A stretch of 44,835 nucleotides of DNA, the filler included, from Catajapyx aquilonaris (lineage: Eukaryota): NCBI GenBank assembly GCA_000934665.2. It is 2 parts of 2 records of this genome, joined end to end, with 100 filler letters (N's around TTAATTAATTAA, not from the genome) between each part and the next. Parts side by side here need not be neighbours in the genome. Positions count along the whole stretch, not along the records: positions 22,486 to 44,835 come from JYFJ02005876.1; 1 more part is not named here. One strand, written 5' to 3'. Position 1 is the first letter of the stretch; each line of letters opens with the position of its first letter. Position numbers and translations under genes: made by a program. Shown one piece after another: positions 14,762-40,215 of this stretch. Under the pieces are notes generated by a model. The model was not told the origin of the DNA. It saw nothing but the letters and a program-made list of their open reading frames with translations, and ran no database searches.

Positions 14762-16750
14762 ACTTCGTAGGAGTTATTGCTTCATTACGAGGAGACCTAT
14801 GAACATGTTCATAACACATTATATTGAACATAATTTCATGCAGGGTGACACCATGTCCAAATCTCCAAAAGAAGGGCATAGATGCTCTGTATATAGGCTG
14901 TGTACAATACACACTATTATACTAATAAATACGCCTTTTTTACTTCAGCATTACCGAATCTACGATTTCAAACGTCCTATTTAATGTCTCTGTCTCTATA
15001 AAGTGAGTGATGACCAATAGTTTCACAACTATATCTGTTCTCTTCCTCAGACGCAGGACAGAGCTCCTGTTCACATAAACCCCCTGGAGGAGGAGGAGCA
15101 AGAAATGCAGAGAGGACCGCTCGAAGGAATATTGAAGCACCATCATCACCGTCATGTGCGATTAAACAGACTAAATTTTTTTCATATAATGCGTGTTGTG
15201 CCCATATCTGTGGATCGGAAAAAACAAAAACAAGCTTGCTAATTAAAAAACCTTAATTATTATCCCTCAATAAATTCTTCCTCGTTGAGATTCCAGGTCA
15301 ATTACGAGTAATTTCGGTGTGCCAGGTCTTCGGGTGCCAGGTCTTCAGGGAGGCAAGTACAGTATATTATTTGAAGGAAATTTAGAATCAAAAAGGCTTC
15401 AATTTTATAGCATGTCATTGCATCTAAACATTAAAATCCGTTACTCAAGTATTCGTTCGAGTTAAACATTGGCCTGTATTACAGTACTAGCTAATTTACC
15501 CGCATATGCAGTAGATATTTGTCATGTGTTGCATTGGTCTAGTGGCTCATATGGAGCTAATAATGGCAAAAAAAATTGAATCTAGATAATGTGCGTCATA
15601 CCTGATTTTCAGACAACTTAGTTCACAACTGCATCAGGTACTATCAATCTCGTTGAACCATTCGCAATGCTTAATTGTAACCAGGAACCTCCCATTAAAT
15701 GTGCATACTAAATGTTTCAAACAGTCGGCATTATTAAGTTATTATGTTTTCTTTTAACTGATCCACGTTCATATTTTAGATAGTTTTTTTTGACAATTTT
15801 TAATCCTTCATTTTGTACTCGTCAACACTACAGGATTGTACCATAGTAGGTGAGCGCTTTCTGGACATATACTCGAGCAGAGTTAGTTATCTTTTTTTCA
15901 TATTAATTTCTTCATATCAATTTATTATTGGCTCTCGCAGCGATCCACAAGTATTTTTTCAATAGAGCAGGATTTTATCTATGACAAGTTTTAAGCGCTC
16001 TAAAAACAATGTGTATGCATGGTATACACAGCAAATTGTGTATACTGCATTGTACTAACTAATGTACATAATGCAGCACACAATGTGCATTTTGTTTAAA
16101 TCGCAACGCTGTGTACCATGGATACACGTTTCTTTTGAGAGAGTACCCCTTGAAGTATCAGTTCGAGAGTAACATCCTGTGATGATGGGGGTGGCGTACT
16201 GCAGACAGAATAATTTGGGAACAGTTTCTTATAATTTTTTGTTTGTTTTTGACTAGTGTGAGAGTCGATGCTCTTCATGTGTGGGAATCTATTATTTTCT
16301 TTTAGTGGACATGTCCCTTTTTAGACCTTCTGTAGCAGGTATAGGGTGGCCATTTCCAAATCTTCAGAAAGAAGGACACAGCTGGTAGGTATAAATATAT
16401 GCTTTATACAATACAATACATTGTGTGACCCCTGACCTCGGGTCACACCCTGACTCGCTCAGTAACGCAGGTTCAGTTGAAGATGTCAGACTGGGAGAAA
16501 AGGGTGGAAGAAGTGGCGGGGAAAACTGGAAAAGCCGCGAAAATAATGGTTTCTGATAACATACTGTATAATGAATATGCCTTTTTTACTTGATATAACT
16601 GAAACACAAATTATCACATTCTTTTACTTAACACACTAATGAGGCTAAAAAATGTAACCTAAATCAAATATTTTATGGTGATTGTTGAATTTTGTGGCGC
16701 CCTTTCTTTGTACAATAAGTACATGCTGGAGAGAGTGTCAGTATCGAAGT

Positions 16751-16815
16751 AGCGCAGTGGTCTAGTGGTTAAGACTCTCTCTTCGTAACCCGAAGGTTGA
16801 AGGATCGAATCCTGA
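16751..16815 (+). other. Degenerate tRNA-like (Pol III A/B box) cassette 1 in the left arm; mirrored at ~18827-18890 on the - strand
   Basis: A-box TGGTCTAGTGG (16758) and B-box-like GGATCGAATCC (16802) at tRNA spacing; stems are degenerate. Confidence 0.6.
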
Positions 16816-16950
16816 AAAAGGAAGACTTCGTTTCTTTTTATCGCTATGGACCTTTGTCTCTGCCTGACTTCATCTCGCATCTTACATTTATTTCTCTTTG
16901 AAGTGCATCTGGTAAATAGGCTAGACCTTCTTGCCACCCACAGTTTCGTT

Positions 16951-17028
16951 GAAGCAGAGCGTGGCTCTGTGGAAACGCGTCGGACTCTCGATCGAAGGGT
17001 CCTGGGATCTAATCCCGGGGCTTCTTCG
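16951..17028 (+). other. Degenerate tRNA-like cassette 2 in the left arm; mirrored at ~18612-18690 on the - strand
   Basis: A-box-like TGGCTCTGTGG (16962) and B-box-like GGATCTAATCC (17005), with a T-stem-like CTGGG...CCCGG. Confidence 0.5.
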
Positions 17029-20000
17029 GTTGTGGTCAGACAAAGAAAAAAAAATTTGCAGCCGACATCTCTGGCCAAGATGGCGACTGTTTCTCCGGTG
17101 AAACATCTTCCGAGTTGACACTTGGAGGATGTGGAGGAGAAGGGGGGAGGGGTGGAGAGGGGGAGGAAGAGGGAGGAGGTGAGAAAATTTTTTTTTTTTG
17201 AAATTTTTAAGACACCTGCTTAATGGGAGGGGGCGGTCACTTTTTTCGAAGGAAAAAGTCTTAAATTTAATCATTCAAAAAATTGAAGAATTCAGGTTTG
17301 TGTGGGCCATCCCCAGCCCCCACCCTACCACTGCCCAAGTGGGTGCATTTACCTTATACCTGGGAGTTCCATTCTCAAACCTATCACCCCTCCAAATATT
17401 TAATCCTACAATTTAAACTATAGATCCTATAAAATAAGCAGCACATACAAATGATTCGGCACAATTTTTAGGTCATTTCCAATGGGTTGTTTCAGGCTGA
17501 CCTTTGACCTGAAAGGCCCTAATATTAGGTTTTTGGTCAGGGGAGAGGCCCCAACTCGATCTCCATCTGTCGGGTCTCTCGTAATGAGACTGTACAGAGC
17601 ACAGTACATAGATATACAGTATATATCTCTCGATGTGAGGTAGTATCCCCTAGCCAAATGTAGCAGTCCCAGTAGGCTGGTATCAGTATGACTGTGACGT
17701 AGGCGAGTGGTCACCTCTTGGGGTCATCAGGACGGACATTCGGCATCACCGTTTCGTGGCATTGCTTTATGGATTAATAAAATAATAAATCCCCACCCGC
17801 TTCTGCTGTGGGTGCTGGAGATGCGCAGATCGTTCGACGCGGTTTTAGATAGGCAAATTTTCGTGTAGGCTTGGTCACCTTCCAGTCTCTTTGACCTTAC
17901 ATATTCCCCCTTTTCCGCCCCCGCCCCGCTACCCACAAGGACAGGCGGACTGCTACAGTACATTTGGCTGCCAGGCTAGGGGCATACCACGGGGCATACT
18001 ATCTTCACATCGAGAGATATATACTGTATATCTATGTACTGTGCTCTGTACAGTCTCATTACGAGAGACCCGACAGATGGAGACCGAGGTAGGGCCTGGC
18101 CCCAGACCAAAAACCTAATATTAGGGTCTTTCAGGTCAAAGGTCAGCCTGAAACAACCCATTGGAAATGACCTAAAAATTGTGCCGAATCATTTGTATGT
18201 GCTGCTTATTTTATAGGATCTATAGTTTAAATTGTAGGATTAAATATTTGGAGGGGTGATAGGTTTGAGAATGGAACTCCCAGGTATAAGGTAAATGCAC
18301 CCACTTGGGCAGTGGTAGGGTGGGGGCTGGGGATGGCCCACACAAACCTGAATTCTTCAATTTTTTGAATGATTAAATTTAAGACTTTTTCCTTCGAAAA
18401 AAGTGACCGCCCCCTCCCATTAAGCAGGTGTCTTAAAAATTTCCAAAAAAATTTTTTCTCACCTCCTCCCTCTTCCTCCCCCTCTCCACCCCTCCCCCTT
18501 CTCCTCCACATCCTCCAAGTGTCAACTCGGAAGATGTTTCACCGGAGAAACAGTCGCCATCTTGGCCAGAGATGTCGGCTGCAAATTTTTTTTTCTTTGC
18601 CTGACCACAACCGAAGAAGCCCCGGGATTAGATCCCAGGACCCTTCGATCGAGAGTCCGACGCGTTTCCACAGAGCCACGCTCTGCTTCAACGAAACTGT
18701 GGGTGGCAAGAAGGTCTAGCCTATTTACCAGATGCACTTCAAAGAGAAATAAATGTAAGATGCGAGATGAAGTCAGGCAGAGACAAAGGTCCATAGCGAT
18801 AAAAAGAAACGACGTCTTCCTTTTTCAGGATTCGATCCTTCAACCTTCGGGTTACGAAGAGAGAGTCTTAACCACTAGACCACTGCGCTACTTCGATACT
18901 GACACTCTCTCCAGCATGTACTTATTGTACAAAGAAAGGGCGCCACAAAATTCAACAATCACCATAAAATATTTGATTTAGGTTACATTTTTTAGCCTTA
19001 TTAGTGTGTTAATAAGTAAAAGAATGTGATAATTTGTGTTTCAGTATATTCTTAAAAAATATTCGTGTGCCAAAAACAAACAAAAAAACCTGTTATGATT
19101 TCCGTAAAAACTGGCCACAGCCGCTCCCTTCCGTTCCTATCCTATTCCAAAAAGCAAATAAAATGAAAGCAAAGCAAGCAAAGAGTTCCAGTCACAACAA
19201 AAATTTCCCCCCTAAAGAGCCGCCGGCTGATAACGGGGTATGAATTATTATTACTGTTGCCCATTTTTTTTGGCTTCCAAAAATGGGAAATTCGCTGGAA
19301 TTGTTGCATACGTGCCCAAGGTGACTACTTTGAAGGTGGCAAATGTTAATGTTTTCATGAACAACTTTTCGATCACACCTCGTACACTTTTAAATTGTGT
19401 TCTTTTCATGACAACTATTCACATGGCAATCAATGATATACATGAGAGCTTCATTGGTACTAAAAAAATAACCAAGTATTATGTACGGTCGGGCACGGGA
19501 GAGGGTCCTGGCCCTTGGGACAGGGGGGGGGGGGTGACACCACGAGTTGCCGTACCGGGTGACAACAACACTAGCGACGCCACTGCTTAAAACATTCGCA
19601 TTCCTGGGCAAGTACTTCAGCAACCACCGGAGTAATAATGGTGGTGCCACCCTTGAATCTTTCTCTATAGCCATCCAAACTATTTCTGACTCCATAGATC
19701 CCAAGAGAACCATCGCGACCTGCCAGCGTCCTCCTCACACCCCTGCCTACTATTTTGATTTCCTCACCCCGATTAAAATCACTCGTTTACTGATCAACCT
19801 TCGCCATAGTTCACCTATAGTTTATCCTTGTTAGGACAGAATTTATTTCGACAGTGAGTAAGTCTGTTCCTGGTGTCATGTAAAAGAGCCCTTCTCACTA
19901 TATCATTTATTATATGCCCACCCTTTGTTTCGCACTCTCCGCCACTCTCGTTTCTTTTTAATCTCCCATATGTCAGACTCAGACTCTCTAGCTGGTTCAA

Positions 20001-22816: not shown

Positions 22817-23163
22817 GTTTTTTTTAAATTTACCCCGTGCCAGGCATCAATGGCCTATTTGGGGGGTGGCACACCACCATCAGTTTTCTCTGTCATTTTT
22901 TTTCTTCAGTCACCGGTGCAAGGAGTCAAGGATGTAGGGTAGGGGTAGGGATTTTTGGGGAGGGAACATGGGGTGCAAGGGCAATGCCTACAACTGGGTC
23001 ATGTGCTGTCCCCCAGGAGGTTAGGTTGCCAGACACCTCCTTGGTGCAGGTCAGAGACCCTCCCGACGCAGGTGAAAGGCAAGTTCCCCAGGCGGGGATC
23101 GAACCTGGAGCCTTTCACTCAGCAAGCCGTGACGTTACCATCACGGCCACCACACCTCCCCTC
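22817..23163 (-). mobile_element. tRNA-derived SINE (~347 bp) with a 16-bp target-site duplication
   Basis: TSD AAGTGGATAATGAGTT at 22801-22816 and 23164-23179. Minus-strand head has A-box GTGGCCGTGATGG and B-box GGTTCGATCCC; A-rich tail near 22817. Confidence 0.85.
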
Positions 23164-23379
23164 AAGTGGATAATGAGTTACGGTCCTCTCACATCTGACG
23201 GCAGTTACTGGCATCCCCAGTGGGAAGAGTTGGTAAGCAGGATCAGCCGCGATATTCAGCACTGAACCCCGGGCTAGGCCGAGAACGTCAAAAGAAAGTG
23301 GCGGGAAGAATGAAACCAGTCGTTGATCATCTAATATGATTTTTTAAATTGTAGTTATTTATTTATTTATTAAAATGAT

Positions 23380-23416
23380 CGCGGCCACCCGCGACCCCCC
23401 AGGTTGGGAACCACTG
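23380..23416. mobile_element. Terminus of a hAT (Charlie-like) element
   Basis: Ends in GCGACCCCCCAGGTTGGGAACCACTG, matching the CAGTGGTTCCCAAC-type hAT terminal repeat. No partner end identified. Confidence 0.5.
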
Positions 23417-23740
23417 ATCTAATACAGACACTGCCAAGTTCCATTGGCTGTTTATAATAAAGGGAAGTTATGAGCAGTTAGAAAAACGTGGTCGGAAAGT
23501 GTGCATATGATTTAGATACATGTGCGATTGCATGCGAGTAGAGGCGGTAGAGGTTGTGAATTTCTGTTCACACATTAATAAATTGTTGTTGTTTTTTAAA
23601 TTGCATGGGTCAAGATGGGTATGTTGAGGTGGGCAAATGCATATTTCCCAGCCAATGCAAAGGTGGGATTGCAGATTGGTCGCAGGATATAGGGAATCAC
23701 GGATAAGTGAATGCACGGAGGAACGGGTGGCTATTTAATA

Positions 23741-24283
23741 CAGGGTGGACCAACTTCAAGTGTCGTTTTATAACGGCTATTATTAGAAGAGCTTTAAGAT
23801 TGACGTATCAGCGACGTGTAAAATGGCCCACTTCGGCGCAACGAGATAGAATAGGGTAGAGGCCATAATGGTCGGACATCTTTGAAGCAAAATGGCGGCC
23901 ATCGGGCGGCCATGCCACTTCACGGCAAGAACTTTGAAATTGTAGTATCGCTAACCCTGTTCTCCTCTCCTGCCTCCTGGCGGGACTAGGAAGAAAAGCC
24001 TGTCTGGGGACGTTTTTATTTATTCCCACCCCCCGCCAGGAGGCAGGAGTGTAGACAGAGGAGAACAGGGTTAGAAATACGGCTATTTCAAATGAGCGCA
24101 TGTTCTTGCCGTGAAGTGGCATGGACGCCAAAGATCACGTGACCTTTACGGCCTCTACCCTATTCTATCTCGTTGCTTCGGCGCCATCGAAAGTGGGACA
24201 TTTTACACGTCGCTGCTACGTCACCGCAAAATCACCGCTATTAATCGCCGTTATAAAACGACACTTGAAGTTTGTCCACCCTG
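23741..24283. mobile_element. Tc1/mariner-type MITE (543 bp), largely palindromic
   Basis: TA|CAGGGTGGACCAACTTCAAGTGTCGTTTTATAACGGC ... GCCGTTATAAAACGACACTTGAAGTTTGTCCACCCTG|TA. Internal segments are also inverted (AACCCTGTTCTCCTCT...CCTGCCTCCTGGCGGG vs CCCGCCAGGAGGCAGG...AGAGGAGAACAGGGTT). Confidence 0.92.
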
Positions 24284-24287
24284 TATA

Positions 24288-25231
24288 TGGAAGATACTCC
24301 ACCAGTCATGACGTCACAGGTGAGTGGGGCGGAGCAGGGCCTTGGCGGAGGAAGGGTTATGACGCCTCCCCCTGTCCTCCCCTGGCCTCCCCTGTCCCAC
24401 CGGTTCATTGCAGTAGCCGCGGTTTTTCATTAGCTATTACTGGCAAATCGCTGCAACTCAGCAACAGCTATCGCACGTTTGGCCAGAATTAATGACTTAT
24501 GGACTTTTTGGCTACGTATTCGTCATTCTTCCGACGCCGTACTTTCACCTATACTCCTATAGGCCTGCATACGCGGAAGATAGGGCTGTATCCGCAAGGA
24601 AGGAAGGTTAGGTTAGGTTGGGTTGGGTTGGGTTAGTACACCGCCTACCCCTGTGTATCCGCTGAAGATAGGCTGTATCCGCTGAAGGTAGGTCTGTATC
24701 CGCAAGGAAGGTAGGTTAGGTTGTCTTAGTACATCGTACCCCTACCCCCTGCCACATGAAGCAGTGACAATATTAATATTCCAGGACTAAAATATTAACA
24801 CGCTTGCTCATGGTGATAATTATTATAAGAGACCGGTTAGGAACGAGTCCAGCCAGGAACGAGACCAGCCATGAACGGCGTCGTAGTGTAGTGGTTAGGG
24901 CCTACAAATCAGAGGGTCATGGGTTCGAACCCATGCAGACGAGGTTATTTTTAACCCCCGTTTTCTCCCATTTCTTTTTGTTTTCCTCACATTACTTTTT
25001 ACTCCCCTGCTTACTAATTTATTTACTTTCGCAAACAACTGAGAGAAAACTTGACATCTATTTTAATTGCATGATGCCAAGTTGCCAACACTCTATCATG
25101 GAATAGCGGATAACATCAGCTGCTACTGAGTCGCCTAATACCATAATAGCTAATAGTTGCTGGCTAGCGGCTACGCGCTACGAGCCTAAAGGCAGGCACC
25201 GGTGACGTCATGACTGGTGGAGTATCTTCCA
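24288..25231. mobile_element. Non-autonomous TIR DNA element (~944 bp) flanked by TA repeats, with internal cargo
   Basis: Perfect 30-bp TIR TGGAAGATACTCCACCAGTCATGACGTCAC / GTGACGTCATGACTGGTGGAGTATCTTCCA. Internal GTATCCGC tandem repeats and GGTTAGG/GGTTGG runs (24580-24725), plus a tRNA-like segment. Confidence 0.85.
24873..24950 (+). other. Degenerate tRNA-derived segment (SINE-head-like) inside the TIR element
   Basis: A-box TAGTGTAGTGG and B-box GGTTCGAACCC with T stem ATGGG/CCCAT; shortened anticodon arm; followed by TTATTTTT. Confidence 0.6.
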
Positions 25232-25341
25232 TATATATTAAATCGCGAACGGGTGGGGGTGGGGGGTTTGAATATGATTGGGATCATCACTGGCAATAAG
25301 TCCGAAGCGATTGAGAATAGGGCGGGCACTGTAGGCCGCAA

Positions 25342-25425
25342 GCCTAGAAAAGAGCGAGCGAAGCGAGTGGTTTTCTAGGCCAGCGCCCTAGGAAAATGCG
25401 AGCGTATAGCGAGGGTTTTCCTAGT
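25342..25425 (+). mobile_element. Tandem Helitron-like 3' termini
   Basis: Two hairpin units, GCCTAGAAAA-GAGCGAGCGAAGCGAGTGG-TTTTCTAGGC and CTAGGAAAA-TGCGAGCGTATAGCGAGGG-TTTTCCTAG|T, the second ending in CTAG followed by T. Confidence 0.5.
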
Positions 25426-25485
25426 ATTAGGCTATTATTAAATTGCTAGGTTTGTTCCTTAGTTGTAGGACTTGCTGTATCTCAC

Positions 25486-25716
25486 CTGTAAGATAGCCTG
25501 TATAGTGTCTCCCTCTTGCATAAGCAAGGAGGCAGGGGTAGCATGCACTTTCAGCAATTTCTTGACCATTGTACAAGAAATTAACATTGGACCTCAGCAG
25601 CCGGCAATAAATGCTCTTCCTACAGTCGAACCTCTGACAGAGGAGACATGGACCAATATGTCCACGACTATTGCTACTACTTTTATGGCTACATTATCAG
25701 TATGTACCATACCTTG
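25486..25716 (-). pseudogene. Degenerate SUMO-like domain downstream of the intact unit
   Basis: MVHTDNVAIKVV...GSTVGRAFIA, then LLRSNVNFLYNGQEIAES [4-nt insertion] ATPASLLMQEGDTIQAILQ|gtgag. Confidence 0.7.
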
Positions 25717-26269
25717 AAATATATTTTGACATGTCTTTCTTTAGATGCACCACCCACTTTTGTGGTGGCTTGGATAGTGGCTCCCTCCCGCATTCCCAAG
25801 GAGGCAGGGGTATCACTTCCAACAATACGTTGTCCTTTATGTAGAAAATTCACATCACACCTCAGCAGCCCCTGGAAATTGATCACATCATGACAATAAT
25901 TCCTGAGTAACATTCCATGCAGTCCTGAGCAAGCTATATGACAACACAGCATCCTCAGGCTATCACCAGTGTACGAATAATTCTCAAGTAAAAGATCAGA
26001 GAGATGAAGCTGATACTGACCCAACGGACACACAATGTATCCATCAACTTCTCCAATGACTGCTGCTTCCTCATCCTCGTCTCCCACCTCAGGGAAACGC
26101 TTCCAAAGTTTAACGGGATGCTACCCAGGAGAGGCTTCAAGTCATCCTGTGGATGGAGTGAGGGAAAATATAACACAACAATCAAGCCTAGTTCACACAT
26201 GCTCATCACCTGCTGGGCCTTTTCACGCTGGTCATCTACTTCATCGCTGCCTCCAGTTGAGTTGTCCAT
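25689..26269 (-). CDS. Divergent SUMO-like protein (three exons; 122 aa if the last exon reads to its stop)
   Basis: Exons 26269-26210 (MDNSTGGSDEVDDQREKAQQ), 26146-26021 (DDLKPLLGSIPLNFGSVSLRWETRMRKQQSLEKLMDTLCVRW) and 25871-25689 (GLLRCDVNFLHKGQRIVGSDTPASLGMREGATIQATTKVGG+ASKERHVKIYFKVWYILIM*), with phase-0 GT-AG introns. Aligns by eye to SUMO L.KLM.AYC.RQ|G....RF.F.GQRI....TP..LGME..D.I....QTGG. Confidence 0.72.
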
Positions 26270-27124
26270 GCTGGCAACTTCTCCTTCAGTCCTTCCGTAT
26301 GTGGAAGACTGGAAGCAGCTATATTGGCCCAGCTGCAACCAGAGTGTACCCGGGGCAGAAGAACTTACTTGGAGAGGATCTTTGTTCTGTTTGACAGCAC
26401 AGAATCGAATGCTGGTTGTGCGGGGTTGCCACATGCCACATCTGATCATAATCAGACACCTGGCAACACAGTTCTAATACTCAGCTTTATTTTTTAAATT
26501 AATGAAGGCTTCCATCCGTGGCTAATTTAGCTTTAGTAAGTTTCTAAAACGGAAATTGAGGTGGTTCATTACAGTGTTGCCACGTGCATTCCAAAATGGC
26601 CGGTGGATGGCGGGAGTTTCAAGTGATGGTCATGAAAGGTGACATGAATTTATTATTGCATCTCTTTTATTACAACTCTCTTGATATGAAGTCAGATGAC
26701 CAGGTATCTCAAGTTAATTAAGAGACATATGGTGGCCCAGGCCTGGAGTTGTTCCAGTATTATGTTGGTGCTGTGTAAATGGCATCTCCAATAATGAATA
26801 AGGCATGATGAACCTCCAGGAGCTAACTGTACATATTCAGGGTTCAAGTAACTAATAAAAACTGGTTAGTTTAGGTATACGAAGAAAAAGCGTCAGAATT
26901 CTTAGCAACATTTTATTTGAATTATTCGAATGTTAAAAGAATATACAGAACTTCTTGAAACCTGAGATTTTTGGTTGTGAGTGCTCGAAAACAAGGAAAG
27001 AAAAAACAAAAGTGGCATGGTATTCCTTCCAACAGTCGAGCACATCATCTTTATCTTAATTGACCTTCTTAAGTTCAGCTTCCACAAAACCTAGGGTTAC
27101 AGCATCGAGATTCGGACCTATATA

Positions 27125-27548
27125 CAGGGTGTATCTGAACTCAGTGCCCCGACATATATGACTGCCTTCCTAGCCACCAGAGGATCGATTTAAGTATAGG
27201 AGTCATTATGTTTGGCCGCCGCATTACGGAGATAATTGGCCGCAAACATGTAGTACAAAATATCCTGTCGGTTAGGCCACCCATCGAACCCTCCCTCAGT
27301 CAGAAGGCTCTGGAAGGTCTGGGGGCGGGACTTTGTTGGTTTGTTGCCCACAGGTGGTAAGGCCTCTTTGGCTAGTTACACCAGAAAATTCTATTTAAAA
27401 GTCAGAAGGAGCGATTAGGCAAAAATCCCTAAAGAGTGTATCTCAGTAATGAGGCTGCCCAGACATATGACTCCTATACTTAAATCGATTCTCTGGTGGC
27501 TAGGAAGGCAGTCATATACGTCGGGGCACTGAGTTCAGATACACCCTG
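27125..27548. mobile_element. Tc1/mariner-type MITE, family 2, copy 1
   Basis: TA|CAGGGTGTATCTGAACTCAGTGCCCCGAC ... GTCGGGGCACTGAGTTCAGATACACCCTG|TA, with ~110-bp imperfect TIRs. Confidence 0.95.
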
Positions 27549-27739
27549 TATAGGCTACGTACACAACAATAACTGCAAAATCCGTGATCAAAAATAAATG
27601 CGGTACGAGTGGTGATCCTCATTATTCATAGTTGGTATCAGTTTATTCCTCAACACTTTTATGACAAGGTGCGACCAAATATATACTTGTTCAGGGTTTA
27701 CCATTGATCACAAACCCCAGCCGAACTACAATCCTAGGC

Positions 27740-28125
27740 AGCTGGAGCTTTCAAAATAATGTGAGAGTCAAAGCGATCTTTGTCCTTCATGTGTAGGTGA
27801 TGGGAGTGTGGCCATCATCGATCTATGCCGGGCATGGAACGTGAAAATAACAGTGAACCTCAACAACCCCTGAAAATTGATCACTTCATGAGTTCACAGC
27901 ATTGCGATTATATTCCAATTCACTCTGACAAGTCGGTCTGGAAACCATTGCTCCCAACAAAAATATGAAAATGCTACTTCAAATCTGAGAAAATAAGTGG
28001 AAGTCCTGACCCGATGCTCGCAATACTTATCCATCAGGCAGGCAAGGTTCACGGTCATCTTCACATCATATCTTATGCCAGGACAAAGCAGAATTCAAGA
28101 TGATTCTCTCAGGCTCCATGTCATA
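27740..28125 (-). pseudogene. Degenerate two-exon SUMO-like domain
   Basis: Exon 28125-28011 reads YDMEPERIILN/LLCPGIRYDVKMTVNLACLMDKYCEHR|gt (frameshift). The exon from 27869 reads GLLRFTVIFTFHARH/IDDGHTPIT/HMKDKDRFD (frameshifts). Acceptors CTCCAACCACAG and CATGAAGTGATCAATTTTCAG are homologous to those of the intact unit. Confidence 0.75.
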
Positions 28126-28183
28126 CTGTGGTTGGAGTAGACAGTAGAGAAAGAGAAATGCCAGTGTCCATAATTGCTCTAAA

Positions 28184-28516
28184 AAAAATTTATTATTATT
28201 GATACCCCGTGCTCGAGCCTGAGGCTCGTTTAGGGGGGTGGGCTACCACCATCTGTGGTGAAACTAGTATACTGAAAGTATTTAGTGTGTTTCACGGGTC
28301 GTTAGGAGGGGATGTGCAAAGTGCATGTGCGCTGTCGTTAATTGGTCATTTTGTGAACTCCCCCGGGTGGCTTAGTCTATCGGAAATTGCCACCCGAAAC
28401 GAAGCCAGAGATGGCCCAACTCTGCACGAAAGAAGGTGGGAACCCCGGGTGGGGATCGAACCCGGGACCTTAACTTCCGTGGGCGCGCGCGTTACCGCGG
28501 CGCCACTCCGTCTCCC
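28184..28516 (-). mobile_element. tRNA-derived SINE (~333 bp) with a 13-bp TSD and an (AAT)n tail
   Basis: TSD TAATTGCTCTAAA at 28171-28183 and 28517-28529. Minus-strand head has A-box GTGGCGCCGCGG and B-box GGTTCGATCCC. Confidence 0.87.
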
Positions 28517-28636
28517 TAATTGCTCTAAATTATTTGTAGTCATGAACAATAGTATAGGAGTATAATAGACAAGCGAGGAAATTACTAATTTTGTTCCGCA
28601 GTTGCATGACTTGCTGTTGCTGTACTTGCCACTCAC

Positions 28637-28759
28637 CTGTATGATAGGATGGACGTTGTCTCCCTATTGCATACCCAAGGAGGCAAGGGTGTCGGTTCCA
28701 AAAACACGTTGACCATTATATAGAGGAAATGAACGTTGTACCTCAGCAGCCTGCAGCCC
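28637..28759 (-). pseudogene. Degenerate SUMO-like C-terminal-half exon
   Basis: Acceptor GCCAATTTCCAG, then LLRYNVHFLY/NGQRVFGTDTLASLGMQ*GDNVHPIIQ|gtgagt, with a stop, a frameshift and a 7-nt duplication. Confidence 0.75.
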
Positions 28760-28907
28760 CTGGAAATTGGCAACATCATGAGATCATACCAAAAAGTGAT
28801 TCCATGGAGCAAACTGAATGATACCTCAATTAACTTATGCGTAACTGACATGAAACTTAAATAAACCTCAAGTATAGGATATTGTGTCTTAAGCTCAGAA
28901 TACTATA

Positions 28908-29338
28908 CAGGGTGTATCTGAACTCAGTGCCCCGACGTATATGATTACCTTCCTAGCCACCAGAGGATCAACTTATGTAGAGGAGTCATTATGTCTGGGC
29001 AGCCTCATTACTGAGATACCGGTACACTCTTTAGCGATTTTTGCCTAATCGCTCCTTCTGACATTTAAATAGAATTTTATGGTGTAACTAGCCAAAGAGG
29101 CCTTACCACTTGTGGGCAACAAACCAACAAAGTCCCGCCCCCAGACCTTCCAGAGCCTTCTGACTGGGGGAGGGTTCGATGGGTGGCCTAACCGACAGGA
29201 TATTTTGTACTACATGTTTGCGGCCAATTATCTCAGTAATGCGGCGGCCAGACATAATGACTCCTATACTTAAATCGATCCTCTGGTGGCTAGGAAGGCA
29301 GTCATATACGTCGGGGCACTGAGTTCAGATACACCCTG
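28908..29338. mobile_element. Tc1/mariner-type MITE, family 2, copy 2 (inverted relative to copy 1)
   Basis: Same TIRs and TA TSD as 27125-27548; the internal core is the reverse complement of copy 1. Confidence 0.95.
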
Positions 29339-29394
29339 TATAGTTTTCACTGCCGTCGTCATGCCGCGGTGCGCATGAACCGTGCCCAGTTATA

Positions 29395-29660
29395 ACCCTG
29401 GAACCGTGACGTGGGGTCTTTTAGGACCCCAAAGGAATTAAACTGCATTAAAATGATAATTACAATGAACTGTTGCCATTTAAAAAGTATATAACAGGAT
29501 GTGGATGTTTATTTTGAATTAGAGATCGTTTTAGGCATTGTTCAAAGAATTATTGCATATAGTACATCATTTGTTGGGATGGTTTATACATTGAAAAGTA
29601 TTATATAAAAATTAAAATACGGATGGGGTCCTAACAGACCCCACATCGCGGTTAACGTAA
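29395..29660 (+). mobile_element. piggyBac-like non-autonomous element end; a second copy starts at ~44647
   Basis: ACCC(T/C)(G/A)GAACCGTGAC(G/A)TGGGGTCTTTTAG(G/A)ACCCCAAAGGAATTAA is shared with 44647-44740, where it reads TTAA|CCC. An inverted subterminal copy GGGGTCCTAACAGACCCCACATCGCGG lies at ~29625. Confidence 0.6.
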
Positions 29661-30479
29661 CTTTCAGGCTAACAAACTTATTTCATGGTCTGTAAATCTA
29701 TTCCAACTTTTGCACATTTGGGAGTTCTAATTTCCCCAGTTTCAAAAATACACGTTTCTTCTAAAACTTCATCAACATCCTGGTTTTTCCGCTTTTTTGT
29801 CCAACCACCTCACCGACACAAACCTGCAAATTGGGAGTCTAGTAAGGTCACACCATGCTTGGAAACCCATAACACAACAAGTGGAGTCATACATTGCATT
29901 GCACCACAAAACAACAAATAGCACACACGAACATAAATATATTGCAAAGCAATATACCATCAGTTTTCATACGTTGAACTGTTTGCAACTCGGACAAGAG
30001 CGGTGTTTGGTCATGACGGAACACCACCGCTCTTGTCTGCGCATGCGCAGCGCCTGCTAATAATTATCGTGTATTCATCGTAAATCGTGCCAACATACGA
30101 ATTGCAACTTATTTCTTCCCTAAGCTGACTTGCAAATTGTTTAGAGTAGGTGTGATTACTTTCCAAGAAAATCGAAATACTTGACACCTTATAATTATCA
30201 TGTATTTTGGTCATATTTATATAAATAAAAACAACATTTTTAGATAATTTAGTATGTCATTATATAGTTTAAGTTTGAGAATTCAAAGTTTAAGTAGGTT
30301 GCCCAGCCCGCATTTTTTAGGACTTTTCACTGGAGGTGCAGGGGTTCCCAAAGAACGTTTTGAAACAAAAAAATAGCTTTCCAAAAATAAATCCATCTCC
30401 ATCCCTAATATTATTTTGTCTGTACGGTACACTATACTATACTAGTGGGCGTTTCTCTGACTAGTTTAACATTAGCATA

Positions 30480-31100
30480 GGTTAAGCAGGGTTGTGTCAT
30501 GATTGTCTCCCTGGTTATTTAATTTGTATTTAGATGCATGTGTAAGGGAAGCTATGATTGAAGGTGTAGGTGTATATTTTGGTGATGAGATAGTGCTGAT
30601 GATTCTGCCCTTCTGGCGGAGAATGAGGCTGATTTACAGTTGTTGATCCTATGCAAGTTAGACAATGTTTGTGAGAGGAGGGGCGCGAGGATTAACGTAG
30701 ATAATACTAAGGTACTGCTATTTGAAAGAGGAGAGCAGGTTTCTCCGTGTTTGTTGCAGGTATCAGGAAAACTGGTTGAGCAGATCAACCAGTTTGTATA
30801 CCTGGTTAGTGTCCTTGAGAGTAATGGTAGAATTGATGGGGAGATTGACAGGAGAGTTAGTTCTGGGTTGAAAGTGATATAGGTGCCACAAGTAAGTTTT
30901 CTAGAAATAAGGACTTATCTTCTGCCTGTAGGTTGTCTGTCTATTCTCACGTTATTGTTCCTTCATTATGTATGGTAGTGATACGTGGGTTGGTCAGACA
31001 GAATACTTAGGATGTTGGCTACAGAGATGCGTTATCTCCGGGCTGTTTGTGGAGTTACGGTTGGATAAGATTAGGAATTATGAGATTTTGCAGAGGTAGT
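30480..31100 (+). mobile_element. Degenerate RTE-clade-like LINE reverse transcriptase fragment
   Basis: VKQGCVM, SPWLFNLYLD, ADDSALLAENEADLQ, INVDNTKVL and QFVYL.S...SNGRIDGEIDRR, interrupted by frameshifts and stops. Confidence 0.85.
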
Positions 31101-32400: not shown

Positions 32401-34787
32401 ATATATTTGCCAAAATCAGTGTACAAGTAACTTAGTTCTTGCAGACTCCTAACTTTGGTGGAAAATATTCCTTTTTGGTACCGTATACCTTACTGTACTG
32501 TACAGTACAACTTAACGTATTAGACAATTGAATTCGATTTAATTACACTCTCGTAGAACTATCATGCCTCAAGTCATGAAACACCAAATTTAGTAATAGC
32601 TAAATACTGACCAGATGAGAAGAATGAAATCTGCAATTAATACGAATTGGGTCCTTTTTACTGAAGTGGCTCGAAAGTCTGATATCCCTGTAATGATCAC
32701 TGATCCGCGAATTGTGAATACAGTATAAACAAATGTCGCCGGACCTATTTGAATACAAGTAGAACGTGCGAAATTGCAGTTCTGTATAGCCTTCAGTTGG
32801 CGCGGTGACCAGGTATTTCAGGTCTGATACTTCTGTATTATGCAGCAAGAATACCTGAGTACAGTAGCACTGGTAACAGCCGCTCAAAAAATGTTCATAA
32901 TCTCATTTCCCACAACTCCGGGTATATTGTGACACAGTACGCTAATTAGTGCGCTAATGTGCACTCTGTGTTGCCATGAAGGTATGGTGTTTGTTGCCTG
33001 TTTGATAAGTGCCTCTTTTTCACTAATTTCTGTCACTGTAGGAATCGAGAACCTGCTGGTGAGATGACTGTGTACTTTTCTCATGGGGGTTGCATGCAAT
33101 AAACTATTCTGCACACTTGAGTATTTTATTATTTTGTTGTGTGAAAATTATTTCACAAATTGTGAAATATATCAGCTGCAGAAATAGTGCAAAAATTATT
33201 TGATTGCATTTCAATCGATTTCAATGCCTGATAAGACTACAGTTTCAGGGCCTTTTCTGCTTTTCCACTTGGTCTTTTCTGGACTTTTCCAGCTGTTCAT
33301 TTGGAACAAAATTGCCCAGTATTGCAGACCAATGTGTCAAATGTGTGTGACCATCTTTTAGGATTGGATAATTTAATGTCTCCAATATTCATGCAACCAG
33401 AAATTACTGATGTGACAATAACACTAACTTTCAACAATGTTATTACAGGTTCAAATTAATCAGTAGGCCTACTATTTTGTTTGATGCATAATAAGAGGCA
33501 ATCTATTTTACCGTTGTAATAAGATCCATATTTGGAATAAGACCATTGTTATAGCGTCTGAAAAGTGTGACTTGTGTGTTATTAAATTACAATTAATCCA
33601 CTTATAATAATAATCGTAAATCAGAAGTTATTACAATAACTTCTCAATTATGACGTGGGCTGAACTGGACGAGTCTTGGGTACTGGTCATTTGTTAATGC
33701 ATGTCTTTTCATTTAAGAAAATCTACTTCTGTGGCAGTAATATTATTAAAAGTTCCAGGTTCGTTAGATAATGTAGAAATGTGCAATATGAAGAATAACA
33801 ATTCAGAATGCTCATTCAGCATGAAAGGTTCCCACATTCACAAGTATAACTTAATTGCTTAGGGTAATATTGAGTAATTATTCAGAGAAAAATGGTAACA
33901 TACCATACTATTTAATGCAATGGAGTGATTACTTATTTAAACACAATAATGGAAAGTTTTCAAAGCCCTTAGAAACTTACATGGTATAATAGGATGAATT
34001 TTAAAATACTGTTTTAACTTGATGTCATGAAAAAATATTTAGTTTGTAAATATAAAAATTGCGAAAAATAGTCAATTTTCTCCCTACTTCTGCCATGACG
34101 GATTCTTCAGTCTCCTACTCCTTCTTCCTGTCCACATGGCCAAACCGCCTTAGAGTAGACCTACACAGCTAATAATCTTTAACAGCCTCTTGAACATTTT
34201 GCCTCTGCAAAATCTCCTCATTCTCAATCATATATCTAACCCCATAAACAGCCAACACAACATACGATACCTCTGTAGACAACAGCTTATGGCTAATGGC
34301 ACTCAGCAACTGTGTGAGCGAGAAGTAAGTTTTAATATTAAATTTTTAGATCTTCCCCACGATGGCACTGACGATCAGCTGGAAACATTTTCGTTGCTAC
34401 TAGTTTCTGCCAGAATCAAGTTGCTGATGTCACAAGTCAAAAAAGAAATGAGGTTTAAGGTTTGAATGCAAAACTCTGTAATAATAGTCTACAGCTCAGT
34501 GTATTTTCCATTTCCCACTTGACACACATGGAAGGGACAGGAATACACACATTTGCTTTCTCCTTGTCTGCCTGGAACAACTTGTTCCATAGACAGGCTG
34601 AATAGGTTTGGGCAAGGGAGTGATCACAAGGCTTCCTGACATTTTCCCTTCCGCATCAGGAGTCTCCGCCGTTCTTAAGGCAATATGGTCTGATGAAAAC
34701 TGAACATCATGAAGCTCAGCTTCAATGTCAGAAGCAGGTGGCACCTCAGACTCAGCATCATTCATCTCCTCCTCAACTTCAGCTGCA

Positions 34788-37700
34788 TCAGTTGTCGTGA
34801 CATGCCCCGTCACACGATCCAACCCCACTTCCCACTTCTGATTCCTCAGAAATCCCTTTGGCTGCTTCCAACTCCACAGTCGAGATGGTTTCAGCCGGTG
34901 TGTCAATGGCAGGATCCGGTCCTGCCTTGCCCACTGACAGCCCCAACTCGAGCAGGGACTGCAAGAGGTCAACATCACCGACCTTGGCTCCCACCTCCAT
35001 CACTTCTTCGACAGCAATGACCTCAATGTCGACCAGGGCTTCCCCAAACTCAGTGATGCAGACAATAAACGTCTTTGTATCCGAATCGTCTGGCCTGGCG
35101 CCGCCAGTGGGTGGCATCAGTGAAAACCGAACAGCAACGGCCAGTTGAGGAATGGCTTCCAAGTCCACCGAAGGATGCAGGGGTCGCAGCAGGGTGATGT
35201 CAACAACTTCCTGACCTCCCCAGTCGCAAGACATCACCACCGCGCCCTCAGGAGTGGACGACACCACCTTGACCCTGCGCCAGTTGCCGTCTTCCATCTT
35301 CGCAGCCCAAATGCTCCCAGGAGCAACATCTTCCTTCCCAGGTCCCTCGCTCCTCTCCTCGTCATTCATGTACTGGGCTGCCATGGCCGAATCCACTTGG
35401 TACACCTGCATTAGTTGAAGAAGCATCATTAAATGCACATTGGTTGGTGAAGCAAGATAAATACCTTGTCCTCATTGGCCTTCAGCTGAATCCAGAAAAG
35501 AGTCGGACTCACAAAATTAGTGATGTACGCTCCAAAGTGATGGCCCACCGAGAAAGCTGGCGAAGCAGCCAGATCGGCTGTGACGTCAGGGACTCCCTCC
35601 ACGGTTGTTGCCACTCCCCCTTCTGACGGGCTGGGCGCAGCTTCGGCCAATCCTTCTGCCACAAGCTTGGCTGCCAAGTCCTCGCCACTGACCTTGACAC
35701 GCCCTTCCAGCACCTCAGCCTCTACGGCCTCCTCCCTTCCTGCAATTTCCCAGATTTTATCCACGATTTCAGCAGACCAGGGGGCATCACCAGGTGACGT
35801 CAAGCTTAAGTCAGCCTCCATGGCAAAAGCTGGCACTTCCAAGAATTGCTTCCCTAGAACCCGGAGTGACCCAACCACTTCCGAGTCACCGTAATCCAGG
35901 AAGCGGATCCTGATGCCCTCCTGGGTCACCTCCAGCACACGTGCCCTGCACCAAATTTGGTCAGAGGCACGCAGGGCAGCCGCGCAGCTGCCAACACGCA
36001 GATCCAACTCTTCCGATTCTCCACATGCCGAGTAGTGGGCAAGCAGCTGCTCAGTCTGGGCTGCCAGCTTATCTTCCTTACTTGTCAGATGTATCCAGAT
36101 GGTATTAGGGCTATCCACATGGACCAAGTACACGGAAAAGATGCCTTCAGGTACAACAAACTCTGGGACAGATGGCTTGGGAATTTCCGCTGCCAGTCCC
36201 TTCACAGGTTCCTTCGCTCCACACACCACGGTTCCGCCTTCATCTACCATGCGAACTATTGCTGTCTGGTCATTTTTCACGTCTAGTACGGCAGCCGTGA
36301 AGGCATTTTCCAACAGCATTTCAGATGCCTTGTCACGTTCCAGGCAGCAGCGAATGGCCTGGACTGGTATATCCATCAACTGGGTGGGCACAGCAGCCAC
36401 TTGCTCCCTCCTGACAACCTCCGAGTTGCCATAATCTACGTTAAAGACTGTGACTAATGTCTTCCCAATGGGGGCTTCAGTGACCCTCACCCTTGACCAC
36501 GCATCCATAAACAAGCAGATGCCAATGTTGCCAGGAATTAGGCTGGCACCGGTTTTCACTGGCTGAAAAAAATAAAGAGATGATCGCCATGTGTCAGATC
36601 AATCATGCGTAAAATAACAAAACTATAAAAAATGACAGAGAGGCGAATAGCCGCACCTGTACAGCTGCAAGCATTTCCTGGAGGTTATCCACTGCGGCTT
36701 GGTCGAACTGGATGAAGAAGGACCCATCTTCTTCCTGAACATGGCTGACAAAGGCGTCCAGGTCTTTCCCTATCAGACTCCTCAGGTGGTGTTCGGGGAA
36801 GGGTTGAACTTGGGCCAGTCCTTCTTCAATCATGGTGTTTGCTAGACTCTTCTCTCCAGTTGGGGACAGGAGGTCCACCAGCCACACTTCTTCATGTTTC
36901 TCCACAAATACGCACCTGATTCAGATGCAAGAACCAATTAGTAGGCATAGGACTCATCAGGATTAGACGATGCATATCACCAAAGAAGCGGGAGGGACAA
37001 ATGCCTTGGCATCATTTCCTCCACATGCAATAATTATGTTGCAGATCATGCTTCACCAACAGCCAATAACAACATACATAACGAACCTGTTCAACCTAGT
37101 AGCAACCATGTAACACTGTAAAGAAATGTTAAGTTCTGAGTGGATAGCTGTCAGGATAATTACGCAACTGTCGTATCCTTCCCAAAATGACTCAAAACCA
37201 TTTCGACTTACTTCAGAGCCTTCGTTGGGTGGAGAAGTGCTTCCGCCCTCTTAAGATCAGGCTGCGTCCAGCCCGTCTCCTTTTTGGGTAATACGCCTCG
37301 TACCCTGCACTCTATGGCCTGCATGGGTAGCTTCAGGAAGTCAGGACCCACTCTCTTCACATCCAATGGGTTTGTGAATGTTGCTGTGTTGCCAAAGTCG
37401 ATAAACTTGACCTGAGGAAACGACATATTTTACTCGTGGAAATTAACCGCCCAAGATTCCTCCTACCTGGCATCCATACTGCCTGGTTGCTGCTACAGTT
37501 ATCACACCCCTGTACCACCGTTCATCATCTTTGGCCACCACTGGTGTCCCCACAGGAGGCCGACTCTCGGTGTTCTCTGATAGCTCCATTGACCCGTACG
37601 TGGCTTGGAGGGTAGCCGTCAGTTCTTCAATTATTGTAGTGATGCCTAACTGCACGTGGAAGGACGATGGGGAGTCATACCAACTCACGTACACAATCTC

Positions 37701-40215
37701 AGCATCACCCGCGGAAACTGGATATGGAGCAAAGCTGGTTGTTGGCCTCGGAAAAGTTGCTTTCCGGTTGTTATCATCATCTTGTTGAAAGCCAGACTTG
37801 AACGAGTCTGCCCGCCTGGCAGGTGGTTGTAAATTGGCCATCACCTTCCTTCCATGGTCTGTGTTGGGAATGGTCACGCTCACTACCATCTCCCGAGCAT
37901 CTCCCTCTTCTTCTACCCCCAACACTTGGAAGGCCATGCTGGCATTGGTCATTACGCTCTTGAAGGTTGGCTCAGATATGCCGCGGGGGAGGTTGTTCAC
38001 CTTGCAGCGGACACCCAACATCTTCTGCCTCATGAAGCGAGCCTCCATGCAAAACACCATCTCACGGCTTACTTGCAAAACACGTCCGTAGTCCACCAGG
38101 CGGACACGGATCCTCTGGGTCGACGGGCATTCACTTAACACCTACAATCCAACAAAAAGAGGACCATTGAAGAAAAACCATCAATGCAATGGCGGATTGA
38201 CAACTTACCTTTCCTCTTAAGTAGCTACCAGTTGCAGAATCAAAAACCACCCACGCTTCCCCAACGTGTGACTCCGGAAGTTTCCCGACAACGAAGGCAT
38301 CCGGTTTATACAGGTATCGTGGGTGCCTTGTTAGCTTTTCGTACGTCTCATTCAAGGCTTTGTCTAATGCTGGTAAGTCAGTGGCCATAAACCTGAGAGG
38401 TTGGGCATACATGTAAGGTGGTAGGTCGACCTGGGCAACAAACATCTCCTCCGTGCTTTGAAGCTCTGGCAACCAGGGGACTGGATGGCTCTGCAACTCT
38501 GCAAGGACAAGTGCCTCATTGAGGCACTTATTTCCTTTCAGAATCAGATTTGACACATATTTGCCGTCTGCCACTTCCAGCACATTCATCTCCGATTCCT
38601 TCTCAATCAGCTTAGGAGCCCATTGATCTGGAATAGTTCTAATGGCATCCAGCTCTATCAGTATGGCTGTCTTCGGTGTATCATCATCCATCTTTGGTAG
38701 TACTTCAGCAATGGATACCTCTTCCTTGAATCCATAATCCACCATCCTGACTTGCACGGACTTGACCATAGGGTCTGACATGATCTCTGCACGGTACCAG
38801 GCACGGTCACTTGATGAGCGAGCGAGACATGCTGTACCAGGATGCAGCAGATTAGGACTCAAGGTGTTTCCTGGTGCAACAGCGGCACAGCGCTGGACCC
38901 TCCGCATGAGCCTCTCGAGACGATGCATGTCCTCCAGCAGCTGCATCCAGACACGGTTTTCTTCAATGAGGATGCACACGCCTGTCACGCTGTCCCCTGC
39001 CATCAGTGGCTCGTGCTCTGGGTAGCCAGCTGCGATGCTGCCAGCATGTCCGCATGACCTCAAAAGGTCCAAAACACTTTGTCCATCAGGGAGGTACAAG
39101 GACACCTGATAAACATCATCATCAGCGAGCCGCACAATGTGCATTTTCAATTCAATGTCACAAGTGATCTCTGCAAAATGATTCCCTACAATCCCATGGG
39201 CATCCCTCAGGCTGCAGGGGATTGCAAGGGGCTCTGGTACCAAGAAGTTGTCCGGACAGAAGGCCAGCTGGTGACTAGCGACCTGCTCAGAGTTGCCGTA
39301 ATCAACAAATCTGCACAACAAAAGTAATGTGTAAGTACGCTATTGAGAAGACAGTTGATGCATTGATACTTACCGTACAGTGGTCGGTGCATCCGGAGCA
39401 GAAATTACTATGGCTCGGTAAAGCAAACTATCCTGGCTGTAGCGCGCCAAGACAGGTGAACCCAGTCGAGGAACTTGGCTCACTGTTTCAAGCTTCAAAG
39501 CAGCTAGTTTGGCTCCCATGACATTCAGAGCCACTTCTGAACTGGCCATCTGTACATGGAAGAAGTGGGGTCCTCCGGCAGCTTCAGACACTTAAGCCCG
39601 GTACTCCCCAGCCTCAAGGGACAGGAACTGGTACGCATGTGGCCGTCTAGCGCACAGACCCACCTGCTGGGCAACCTCGCTCAATGGCTTCCCATTTACC
39701 TTGCTGAAGAGCTGAAACACAGGGACACCCTTATGTTGGCCTACAACCTTGTAGCAAAAAAGTCTGTCTCCTAGGGCATCTCGCAGTGCTGTGAAATGTG
39801 GGTCGACCCACACATCCCCCAAAGGCGGATACAGATCGGCAAGGAAGTGCTCCGATGAGAGAGGTCCCTGTTCTAGTCCAGGTTGTGCCTTCCACGGGCG
39901 CATGTTACATACGAGGGCTTCAGTTTCGGTACCAAAGTCAATCAGCCTCACCCTAACGTGCCTCGGATGGGAGGGCACCTCAGGGAGGACTATGCAGCGG
40001 TACCAGACAAGATCCCGGCATCGAACAAGGTAGATCACATCACGCTGCAGGACCAGACCATAGGATGTCCTGGCATCCAATTTGGGCCCAATGATCTGCA
40101 GGGATTGGTGCACATTATGTGCAGTGTCCACATTTGTCTGAATCCAGGCTATGATTTCAGATGAAGGGACCTCCTCACGCCTCACAAATGTCACTCCATC
40201 ATAAGGGCCTGGCAT
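34788..40215 (-). pseudogene. Multi-Tudor (8 extended Tudor domains) TDRD6/TDRD15/Tudor-like gene with an in-frame TAA: a pseudogene, a null allele or a base-call error
   Basis: Exons 40215-39374, 39310-38209, 38141-37467, 37411-37212, 36915-36657, 36562-35465 and 35405-34788 total 4794 nt in frame. Eight repeats of the WYR...V.F.DYG type (LIDFG, FVDYGN, MVDYG, LVDYG, FIDFGN, NVDYGN, FLDYGD, SCDWGG). TAA at 39594-39592. Confidence 0.85.

Follow-up and report, generated by a model that had tools for sequence, protein, structure and literature searches.

Here we describe a cluster of SUMO-like exons in the genome of Catajapyx aquilonaris (assembly GCA_000934665.2), situated on the minus strand at 25.4–28.8 kb of the window, that is, of the whole stretch of DNA that was analysed (44,835 nt including filler), in the part that comes from JYFJ02005876.1. 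Judged from its sequence, this is a SUMO1-like birth-and-death locus, in which three pieces are dead and one unit, though very divergent, is intact. We consider it fairly probable that the cluster is a small, old, local family of SUMO1-like exon pairs, in which the units here called A, B and D have died while unit C is intact and most likely codes now or did so recently, and that its ancestor carried tandem domains. The ancestral unit would have comprised a first-half exon (beta1, beta2 and alpha1, ending ..YC..R), a phase-0 intron of ~145 nt, and a second-half exon with the signature GLLR..F..GQRI..TP.SLGM..GD.I..; younger transposon insertions would later have broken up the array. An earlier note on this DNA had read the segments as SUMO-derived modules undergoing birth and death, which was essentially right, given their homology to SUMO and the lesions in three of the four units.

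Four second-half SUMO-like exons were located on the minus strand at the starting points proposed in that note: 28759 (A), 27869 (B), 25871 (C) and 25602 (D). The first-half exon was found twice, in B (28125–28011) and in C (26146–26021). The pieces are as follows, with ^ marking the end of an exon at a splice donor.

28637–28781, minus strand: copy A, second-half pseudo-exon with its acceptor context, ending IIQ^GTGAGT in phase 0
28011–28125, minus strand: copy B, first-half exon with one frameshift, then donor ^GTCAGG
27843–27891, minus strand: copy B, acceptor and first ~12 codons of the second-half exon, the remainder decayed
26210–26269, minus strand: copy C, putative exon 1 (weakly supported), MDNSTGGSDEVDDQREKAQQ, then donor CAG^GTGATG
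26021–26146, minus strand: copy C, first-half SUMO-like exon (beta1-beta2-alpha1), DDLKPLLGSIPLNFGSVSLRWETRMRKQQSLEKLMDTLCVRW, then donor ^GTCAGT
25692–25871, minus strand: copy C, second-half SUMO-like exon and read-through tail, GLLRCDVNFLHKGQRIVGSDTPASLGMREGATIQATTKVGG and then a 19-residue tail, with a stop at 25689–25691
25749–25757, minus strand: GTGGGTGGT in copy C, Val-Gly-Gly codons or a surviving splice donor
25489–25602, minus strand: copy D, second-half pseudo-exon, AG acceptor lost, ending at the phase-0 donor ^GTGAG
25440–25478, minus strand: start of the intron downstream of D, homologous to 28579–28617 downstream of A (82% identity over 39 nt)

Copy C is the sole intact unit of the four. 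Its second half reads without a break as GLLRCDVNFLHKGQRIVGSDTPASLGMREGATIQATTK, followed by VGG and 19 codons up to the stop, and the pattern that follows (G)LLR is likewise unbroken (GLLRCDVNFLHKGQRIVGSDTPASLGMREGATIQ); no lesion was found in ~80 core codons (~240 coding nt) or at any of its four splice sites. Copies A, B and D are dead, each with disabling lesions. In A, a tandem 7-nt insertion after the second codon is followed nine codons later by a 2-nt insertion, the stretch between them being out of frame, and an in-frame TAG stands where C and D carry GAG. The frame of D is broken mid-exon by a 4-nt insertion between LLRSNVNFLYNGQEIAES and TPASLLMQEGDTIQAILQ, in addition to the loss of its acceptor. 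In B, the first half lies in two frames one base apart (YDMEPERIILNSALS at 28081–28125, IRYDVKMTVNLACLMDKYCEHR at 28011–28076), and the second half has in common with C the acceptor and ~12 codons (GLLRFTVIF; nhmmer E 4.2e-5, over 27892–27843 only); past ~50 nt it is not alignable, the observed score being reached by 68 of 300 shuffles, and its frame hits a stop after 33 codons. The pattern F..GQ.I..TP.SLGM..GD, ascribed earlier to all four segments, holds for A, C and D (in A and D only across lesions) and is missing from B. Birth and death, as proposed, is what the disabling lesions in three of the four units bear out.

The copies are homologous to one another. At the DNA level (blastn), C and A are 71.9% identical over 153 nt (E 8e-18), D and A 69.1% over 181 nt (E 3e-16), and C and D 72.9% over 107 nt (E 8e-12), whereas C and B share 88.6% over 35 nt only; the closest pair is A and D, with a dS of 0.46 vs 0.65–0.76 to C. 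The acceptor motif CATGA.GT(G/T)..CAATTT(C/T)CAGG, a common context that had been noticed before, occurs exactly three times in the window (25871–25892, 27869–27890 and 28759–28780) and in none of 100 dinucleotide shuffles of it. The acceptor regions of the two first-half exons, B and C, agree at 24 of 28 bases, a score that none of 200 shuffles reached, and the same is true of the 39-nt intron start common to A and D (0 of 200 shuffles). Since the intron that follows A has its first 39 nt in common with the sequence after D, D too once had an intron downstream.

The pieces are also, as far as sequence can tell, homologous to SUMO, and most like SUMO1. Exon 3 of C (its second half) alone matches Rad60-SLD (E 0.0017) and ubiquitin (E 0.041) in Pfam. 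Against solved structures it gives 53 weak matches, headed by a two-domain SUMO2 chain (E 7e-5) and including many SUMO1 chains (0.007–0.05), single domains of SUMO2/3 (0.25–1.7) and NFATC2IP (1.4); the best single-domain match is SUMO1, at E 0.007. In a HMMER search of 1.84 billion representative proteins, 24 matches lay at E<=0.001 (lowest value 5e-19); their identities were 33–45%. PF11976 lies far above its cut-off in all 24, and the matches score high because each has 2–7 SUMO domains. No close relative was found in this library, the only hint that the expansion might be lineage-specific, as the earlier note proposed; the two named matches are fungal. A 22-residue piece of the first half of B, compared with 177,635 PDB sequences, matched two chains over the same SUMO1-like stretch, one of SUMO1 (10 of 21 residues identical, E 0.25) and the 41-residue PD6 (E 0.51). 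In the ESM Atlas, the clusters nearest to C exon 3 are Rad60-SLD/ubiquitin ones at 0.89, under the 0.9 level, which serves as a lead only.

A profile built from 106 SUMO domains of the 24 library proteins, themselves found with C exon 3, was run against all 2126 six-frame open reading frames (ORFs) of the window. The five best matches are all pieces of this locus: C exon 3 (E 5e-11), A (5.8e-5), the second part of D (1.8e-4), the first half of B (6.2e-3) and the first part of D (0.1). With X placed at the breaks, A scores 29.8 bits and D 31.9 bits. With exon 2 spliced onto it, C exon 3 goes from 39.6 to 56.8 bits (+17; E 2.2e-16), where the best of 500 shuffles of spliced C reaches 4.3 bits, and C keeps the conserved profile columns F46, G50, D57, T58, P59, L62, M64, G67, I70, K28, M30, C34 and G38. 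The SUMO origin claimed in the earlier note is supported both by the library, Pfam and PDB matches of exon 3 and by this rise on splicing.

Both first-half exons end at a phase-0 donor, GG^GTCAG, and the exon ends noted before, LMDTLCVRW^gtcagt at 26021 and LMDKYCEHR^gtcagg at 28011, are present. The phase-0 intron between the two halves is found in B (CGG^GT) and in C (TGG^GT), and measures 141 nt in B and 149 nt in C, where it is intron 2. The earlier note likened it to a phase-0 intron that vertebrate SUMO genes are said to have at the same YC.RQ^G point. The putative exon 1 of C opens with an ATG that has A at -3 and G at +4, and intron 1 is 63 nt long (26147–26209), in frame and stop-free, so that splicing there is not needed for an open frame. 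At its other end, reading through the GTGGGT at 25757 would give C the ending ..TTKVGG and 19 further residues; A and D have a splice donor at this point. GTGGGTGGT of C occupies the position of the A/D donor Q^GTGAG and differs from GTGAGTGG of A at intron position +4, and it may be used either as codons or as a donor. The sequence of C after Lys38 shows no significant likeness to the intron of A (127 of 200 shuffles did as well); GTGGGTGG resembles GTGAGTGG by position only. The read-through tail (..ERHVKIYFK) was considered as beta1 of a further domain and rejected, at 0.5 bits in the SUMO1 alignment.

Is C still a gene? Most likely, to judge from its sequence, C (26269–25692) still encodes a divergent SUMO-like beta-grasp protein of roughly 100–120 residues, or did so until recently. 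The ratio of non-synonymous to synonymous divergence (dN/dS, Nei–Gojobori, 35–37 codons) is 0.39 between C and A, 0.31 between C and D and 0.60 between A and D, and a three-branch split gives branch omegas of 0.24 for C, 0.95 for A and 0.43 for D; in 96.6% of bootstrap replicates the C-branch value is below 1 (95% range 0.05–1.18). Small as the sample is, it suggests purifying selection on the C lineage in the past and neutral decay in A. The sibling copies carry 2–3 lesions per ~40 codons (~120 nt); had C decayed for equally long, about five lesions might be expected on a rough calculation, with a Poisson probability of finding none below 0.01.

Several observations weigh against this reading. 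Exon 1 has no homologue elsewhere in the window and is without independent support. Exon 2 is weak on its own (E 1.4 on the SUMO profile, no PDB match), and exon 3 alone scores 18.6 bits vs the Pfam curated cut-off of 23.8, the query being only half a domain. The profile alignment of spliced C spans columns 19–77 of 81 and leaves the beta1-beta2 part unaligned. The Gly-Gly may have arisen by accident where a splice donor once stood. The selection estimate comes from 35 codons and its bootstrap interval takes in 1. No matching or orthologous protein for exon 3 was found, either in a word-indexed search of proteins of 78–251 amino acids or in the HMMER library. Between 26000 and 26480, moreover, open frames of 124–172 codons occupy three of the six frames over the same ~480 nt, on both strands, and the SUMO-like part is only the last 42 codons of one of them; the openness of C may therefore be partly compositional.

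These points lend themselves to the principal alternative, which we regard as possible though clearly less probable: that the whole locus is dead, the graveyard of an extinct SUMO paralogue, and that C is an unexpressed relic which by luck has no stops or frameshifts. Three of the four units are broken, after all, the first half of C has diverged so far that it is unrecognisable alone, an annotated protein for C is missing from the libraries searched, and the bootstrap of its omega reaches 1.18. The absence of C from the protein library says little about annotation, however, since the protein of the neighbouring multi-Tudor gene was not found either: this gene (34496–40218, minus strand) lies directly upstream of the cluster on the same strand and has Tudor matches in five ORFs (Pfam), and a word-indexed search for relatives of 682–2000 amino acids with a Tudor ORF gave nothing at E<=1e-10. 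A dead C is also harder to reconcile with its freedom from lesions in ~240 coding nt and four splice sites, as compared with the load of its siblings, with dN/dS values that are lower in pairs with C than between A and D, and with the most conserved SUMO columns, which C has kept.

If C is a gene, its predicted product would have ~122 residues, with an acidic N-terminal tail, a SUMO-like beta-grasp, Val-Gly-Gly at 101–103 and a 19-residue tail. Given expression, it appears about equally likely that C is a SUMO-like binding protein that is not conjugated, or a conjugatable tag, the latter if a protease of the SENP/Ulp kind exposes the Val-Gly-Gly. The Gly-Gly falls at the donor site of A and D and is one change away from the donor of A, which suggests that the tag-like end would be a recent by-product of read-through or would be unused. 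In SUMO, the beta2/alpha1 stretch forms the groove that binds the SUMO-interacting motif (SIM). It is in this stretch that C has changed most, so that C would be expected to bind other partners than canonical SUMO does. A bolder version, which we put forward as doubtful, is that C is a live, fast-evolving SUMO1-derived modifier of an invertebrate lineage, whose Val-Gly-Gly end would have come from a single A-to-G change (GTGAGTGG to GTGGGTGG) together with read-through; the pieces around it would be what is left of a multi-SUMO gene, and its rewritten SIM surface would serve private readers, perhaps in the germline, beside the multi-Tudor gene.

To return to the family of exon pairs under birth and death, the ancestral layout bears on the question, left undecided in the earlier note, of whether these are tandem paralogues or parts of a multi-domain gene. 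Three insertions have to be allowed for.

28171–28528, minus strand: insertion like a short interspersed nuclear element (SINE), 334 nt, with an A/T-rich end, in the gap between A and B
27121–27553: young insertion like a miniature inverted-repeat transposable element (MITE), between B and C, 95% identical over 440 nt to an inverted copy at 28903–29342
28898–29348: second MITE-like copy, upstream of A

From the donor of A (28636) to the first-half acceptor of B (28126) there are 511 nt, of which 346 nt are the SINE-like insertion and one copy of its 12-nt target-site duplication (TTAGAGCAATTA, at 28171–28182 and 28517–28528). Without it the gap is 165 nt, phase 0 to phase 0, comparable with the 149 and 141 nt of the introns between the halves of C and B, and A ends with neither a stop nor a Gly-Gly. 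As a 3' end, a promoter and a first exon would not fit into 165 nt, A and B are either consecutive exons or A is an exon-sized fragment that landed in the 5' intron of B. We think that a single transcript probably once contained A and B as adjacent exons, and that the ancestral gene would have had at least two SUMO-like domains in tandem. Both of the earlier possibilities thus receive some support: C looks like a stand-alone unit, and A and B, with an intron-sized, in-phase gap between them, were probably parts of one transcript.

That A to D are consecutive domains of one multi-SUMO-domain gene that is still alive, either a poly-SLD (SUMO-like domain) protein or a relative of Rad60/Esc2/NIP45, is improbable. 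Natural proteins with 4–6 head-to-tail SUMO domains exist in the library, the A donor and the B acceptor lie 165 nt apart without the SINE and are both in phase 0, and A and D each run up to a donor with no stop and no Gly-Gly. The TAG and two indels of A, the frameshift, decayed second half and stop of B, and the acceptor loss and frameshift of D nonetheless make a read-through product impossible today. Searches with protein and DNA profiles detected no first-half exon ahead of A or D. The interval between B and C showed no sign of decayed units: a search for them, and for homology of the region upstream of C to the A–B intron, gave nothing significant (the global score was attained by 26 of 300 shuffles; nhmmer E 0.14 even in a search space of 1181 nt). 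The SUMO-like domain of NFATC2IP, furthermore, fits far less well (E 1.4) than SUMO1 does (E 0.007).

Mobile elements are abundant around the cluster (two MITE copies, a SINE, and an element with inverted ends at 24284–25235), and A and D are only ~200-nt fragments of exon plus flank; it is very improbable all the same, slightly more so than a living multi-domain gene, that a transposon of the Pack-MULE or Helitron kind picked up the pieces as gene fragments and dispersed them. At 95% identity, the MITE copies differ in age from the SUMO-like pieces, which are only ~70% alike. Neither inverted nor direct repeats were found to flank the SUMO-like pieces themselves, all of which lie on one strand within 3.4 kb, and there is no other copy within the window. 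Much more recent than the SUMO-like pieces, the MITE-like copies and the SINE have simply split the array. The MITE-like elements are ~435–450 nt long, in opposite orientations, with terminal inverted repeats of ~114 nt each, and the second copy occupies the expected place of the first-half exon of A, none being detectable beyond it. The SINE-like insertion holds a GGTTCGATCCC box, which we read as typical of tRNA-derived SINEs; ARAGORN called no tRNA in it. A region at ~23000–23265 seems similar to this insertion, an ORF there having the GIEPG motif too. Just downstream of D, the ~950-nt stretch 24284–25235 is bounded by a 39-nt inverted repeat, 97% complementary, and is probably a transposon; more inverted repeats lie at 23738–24286.

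Chance likeness, to SUMO or among the segments, is already refuted: half-domain scores are individually weak (18.6 bits in Pfam; E 0.25 in PDB for the first half of B), but the blastn E values among copies run from 8e-12 to 8e-18, the acceptor motif occurs three times where none is expected, library E values go down to 5e-19 with SUMO-domain proteins in 24 of 24 matches, and the five best profile matches among the ORFs all fall in the locus.

No further SUMO-like copies were found in the window by tblastn, by the protein profile on the ORFs or by DNA profiles. Two profile matches (16194–16244 and 15508–15543, E ~1) were set aside as noise, with nothing SUMO-like in any frame, and a borderline DNA-profile match at 35217–35153 inside the Tudor gene (E 0.03, 8.4 bits) was taken as chance. 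None of eight opposite-strand ORFs across the locus has a Pfam match at E<=1, and in Rfam the region 23000–30500 gave a single match, mir-4716, at 26.8 vs a 76-bit cut-off, and contains no known RNA family. The DNA of the window is eukaryotic and animal-type, with GT-AG introns. Pfam searches of long ORFs show a WD40 gene at ~2–3.7 kb (plus strand), presumably Groucho/TLE-like, and an F-box/LRR (leucine-rich repeat) gene at 43.2–44.4 kb (plus strand); a tRNA-Ala (TGC) gene lies at 14690–14761 (minus strand). The ORF at 7084–8010 (plus strand) has a weak match to the major facilitator superfamily of transporters (E 9.4e-4, 18.6 bits, under the 33.4-bit cut-off), and its look-alike on the opposite strand, at 13245–13643, has no Pfam match. 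The two belong to a pair of similar transporter-like genes, 7000–9000 (plus) and 13640–11300 (minus), inverted head to head, whose ORF translations are near-identical in places and which are presumably SLC22-like. A large inverted duplication (16659–17274 and 18369–18981) carries near-identical ORFs of 185–186 and 116–117 amino acids on opposite strands, which have no Pfam match, and a dispersed repeat of ~97 nt occurs at 29393–29489 and 44645–44740 with 89% identity.

How does the cluster compare with known SUMO systems? With modifiers of the SUMO1 type (PF11976, ubiquitin clan) it shares the second half F-L-x-x-G-Q-R-I ... T-P-x-S-L-G-M-x-E-G, a first half ending ..L-M-D-x-Y/L-C-x-R and, possibly, a Gly-Gly near the end of C. 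Canonical SUMOs are highly conserved, whereas C is just 33–45% identical to any SUMO domain of the library. Its beta2/alpha1 surface is rewritten (SLRWETRMRK), it has T-K-V before the Gly-Gly where the consensus of the 106 reference domains is E-Q-x, a 19-residue tail extends past the Gly-Gly, and three of the four copies are broken.

Proteins of the RENi family (Rad60, Esc2, NIP45/NFATC2IP) have two C-terminal SUMO-like domains. The locus resembles them in holding non-conjugated SUMO-like domains in tandem, with A and D ending without a Gly-Gly and A plus B recalling SLD n and SLD n+1; it differs in that the present copies cannot be read through and that the NFATC2IP SLD matches far less well than SUMO1. 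No SIM-bearing N-terminal region was found with the pieces, a first half is missing from A, and only the A–B junction recalls two SLDs. The library also holds proteins (P0001–P0006 and P0008) with 4–6 head-to-tail SUMO domains, many ending in Gly-Gly, in a build like that of polyubiquitin; the hypothetical protein P0001, of 536 amino acids with six Rad60-SLD stretches, comes from the chytrid Rhizophlyctis rosea, and the P0002 cluster belongs to Cadophora sp. These top-scoring matches likewise have several SUMO domains per chain, some joined without a Gly-Gly, but they are fungal and 35–45% identical, their high scores come from summed domains, and nothing points to orthology. RENi and the fungal multi-SUMO proteins parallel the tandem layout that A and B hint at, and neither is closely related.

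The closest evolutionary pattern described so far appears to be that of the tandem SUMO duplicates of the Brassicaceae. There, the paralogues AtSUMO3, AtSUMO4/6 and AtSUMO7/8 are reported as tandem duplicates, which go on to diverge, to lose their splice sites or the di-glycine, and to end as pseudogenes (Hammoudi et al., 2016, PMC6680281). The features in common are local tandem duplication, copies other than the archetype that diverge quickly, early stops and splice-site mutations as the route of loss, and copies without di-glycine (PMC6680281). The differences are that the plants have whole-gene duplicates (PMC6680281), whereas here the host is an animal, two copies are single-exon fragments, and the A–B junction suggests a multi-domain ancestor.

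Non-vertebrate animals are reported to have only one or two highly conserved SUMO genes (SUMO1-type and SUMO2/3-type), with losses in some insect orders (PMC4866545). A diverged SUMO1-like cluster would extend to animals the plant pattern (PMC6680281), in which duplicates escape the constraint on the archetype and either die or gain roles. If C is not expressed, the locus would be only a well-preserved record of the decay of such a gene. If it is expressed, C would be a natural experiment in SUMO drift, in which the SIM face has been rewritten and the C-terminus is unusual while the core of the fold is kept.

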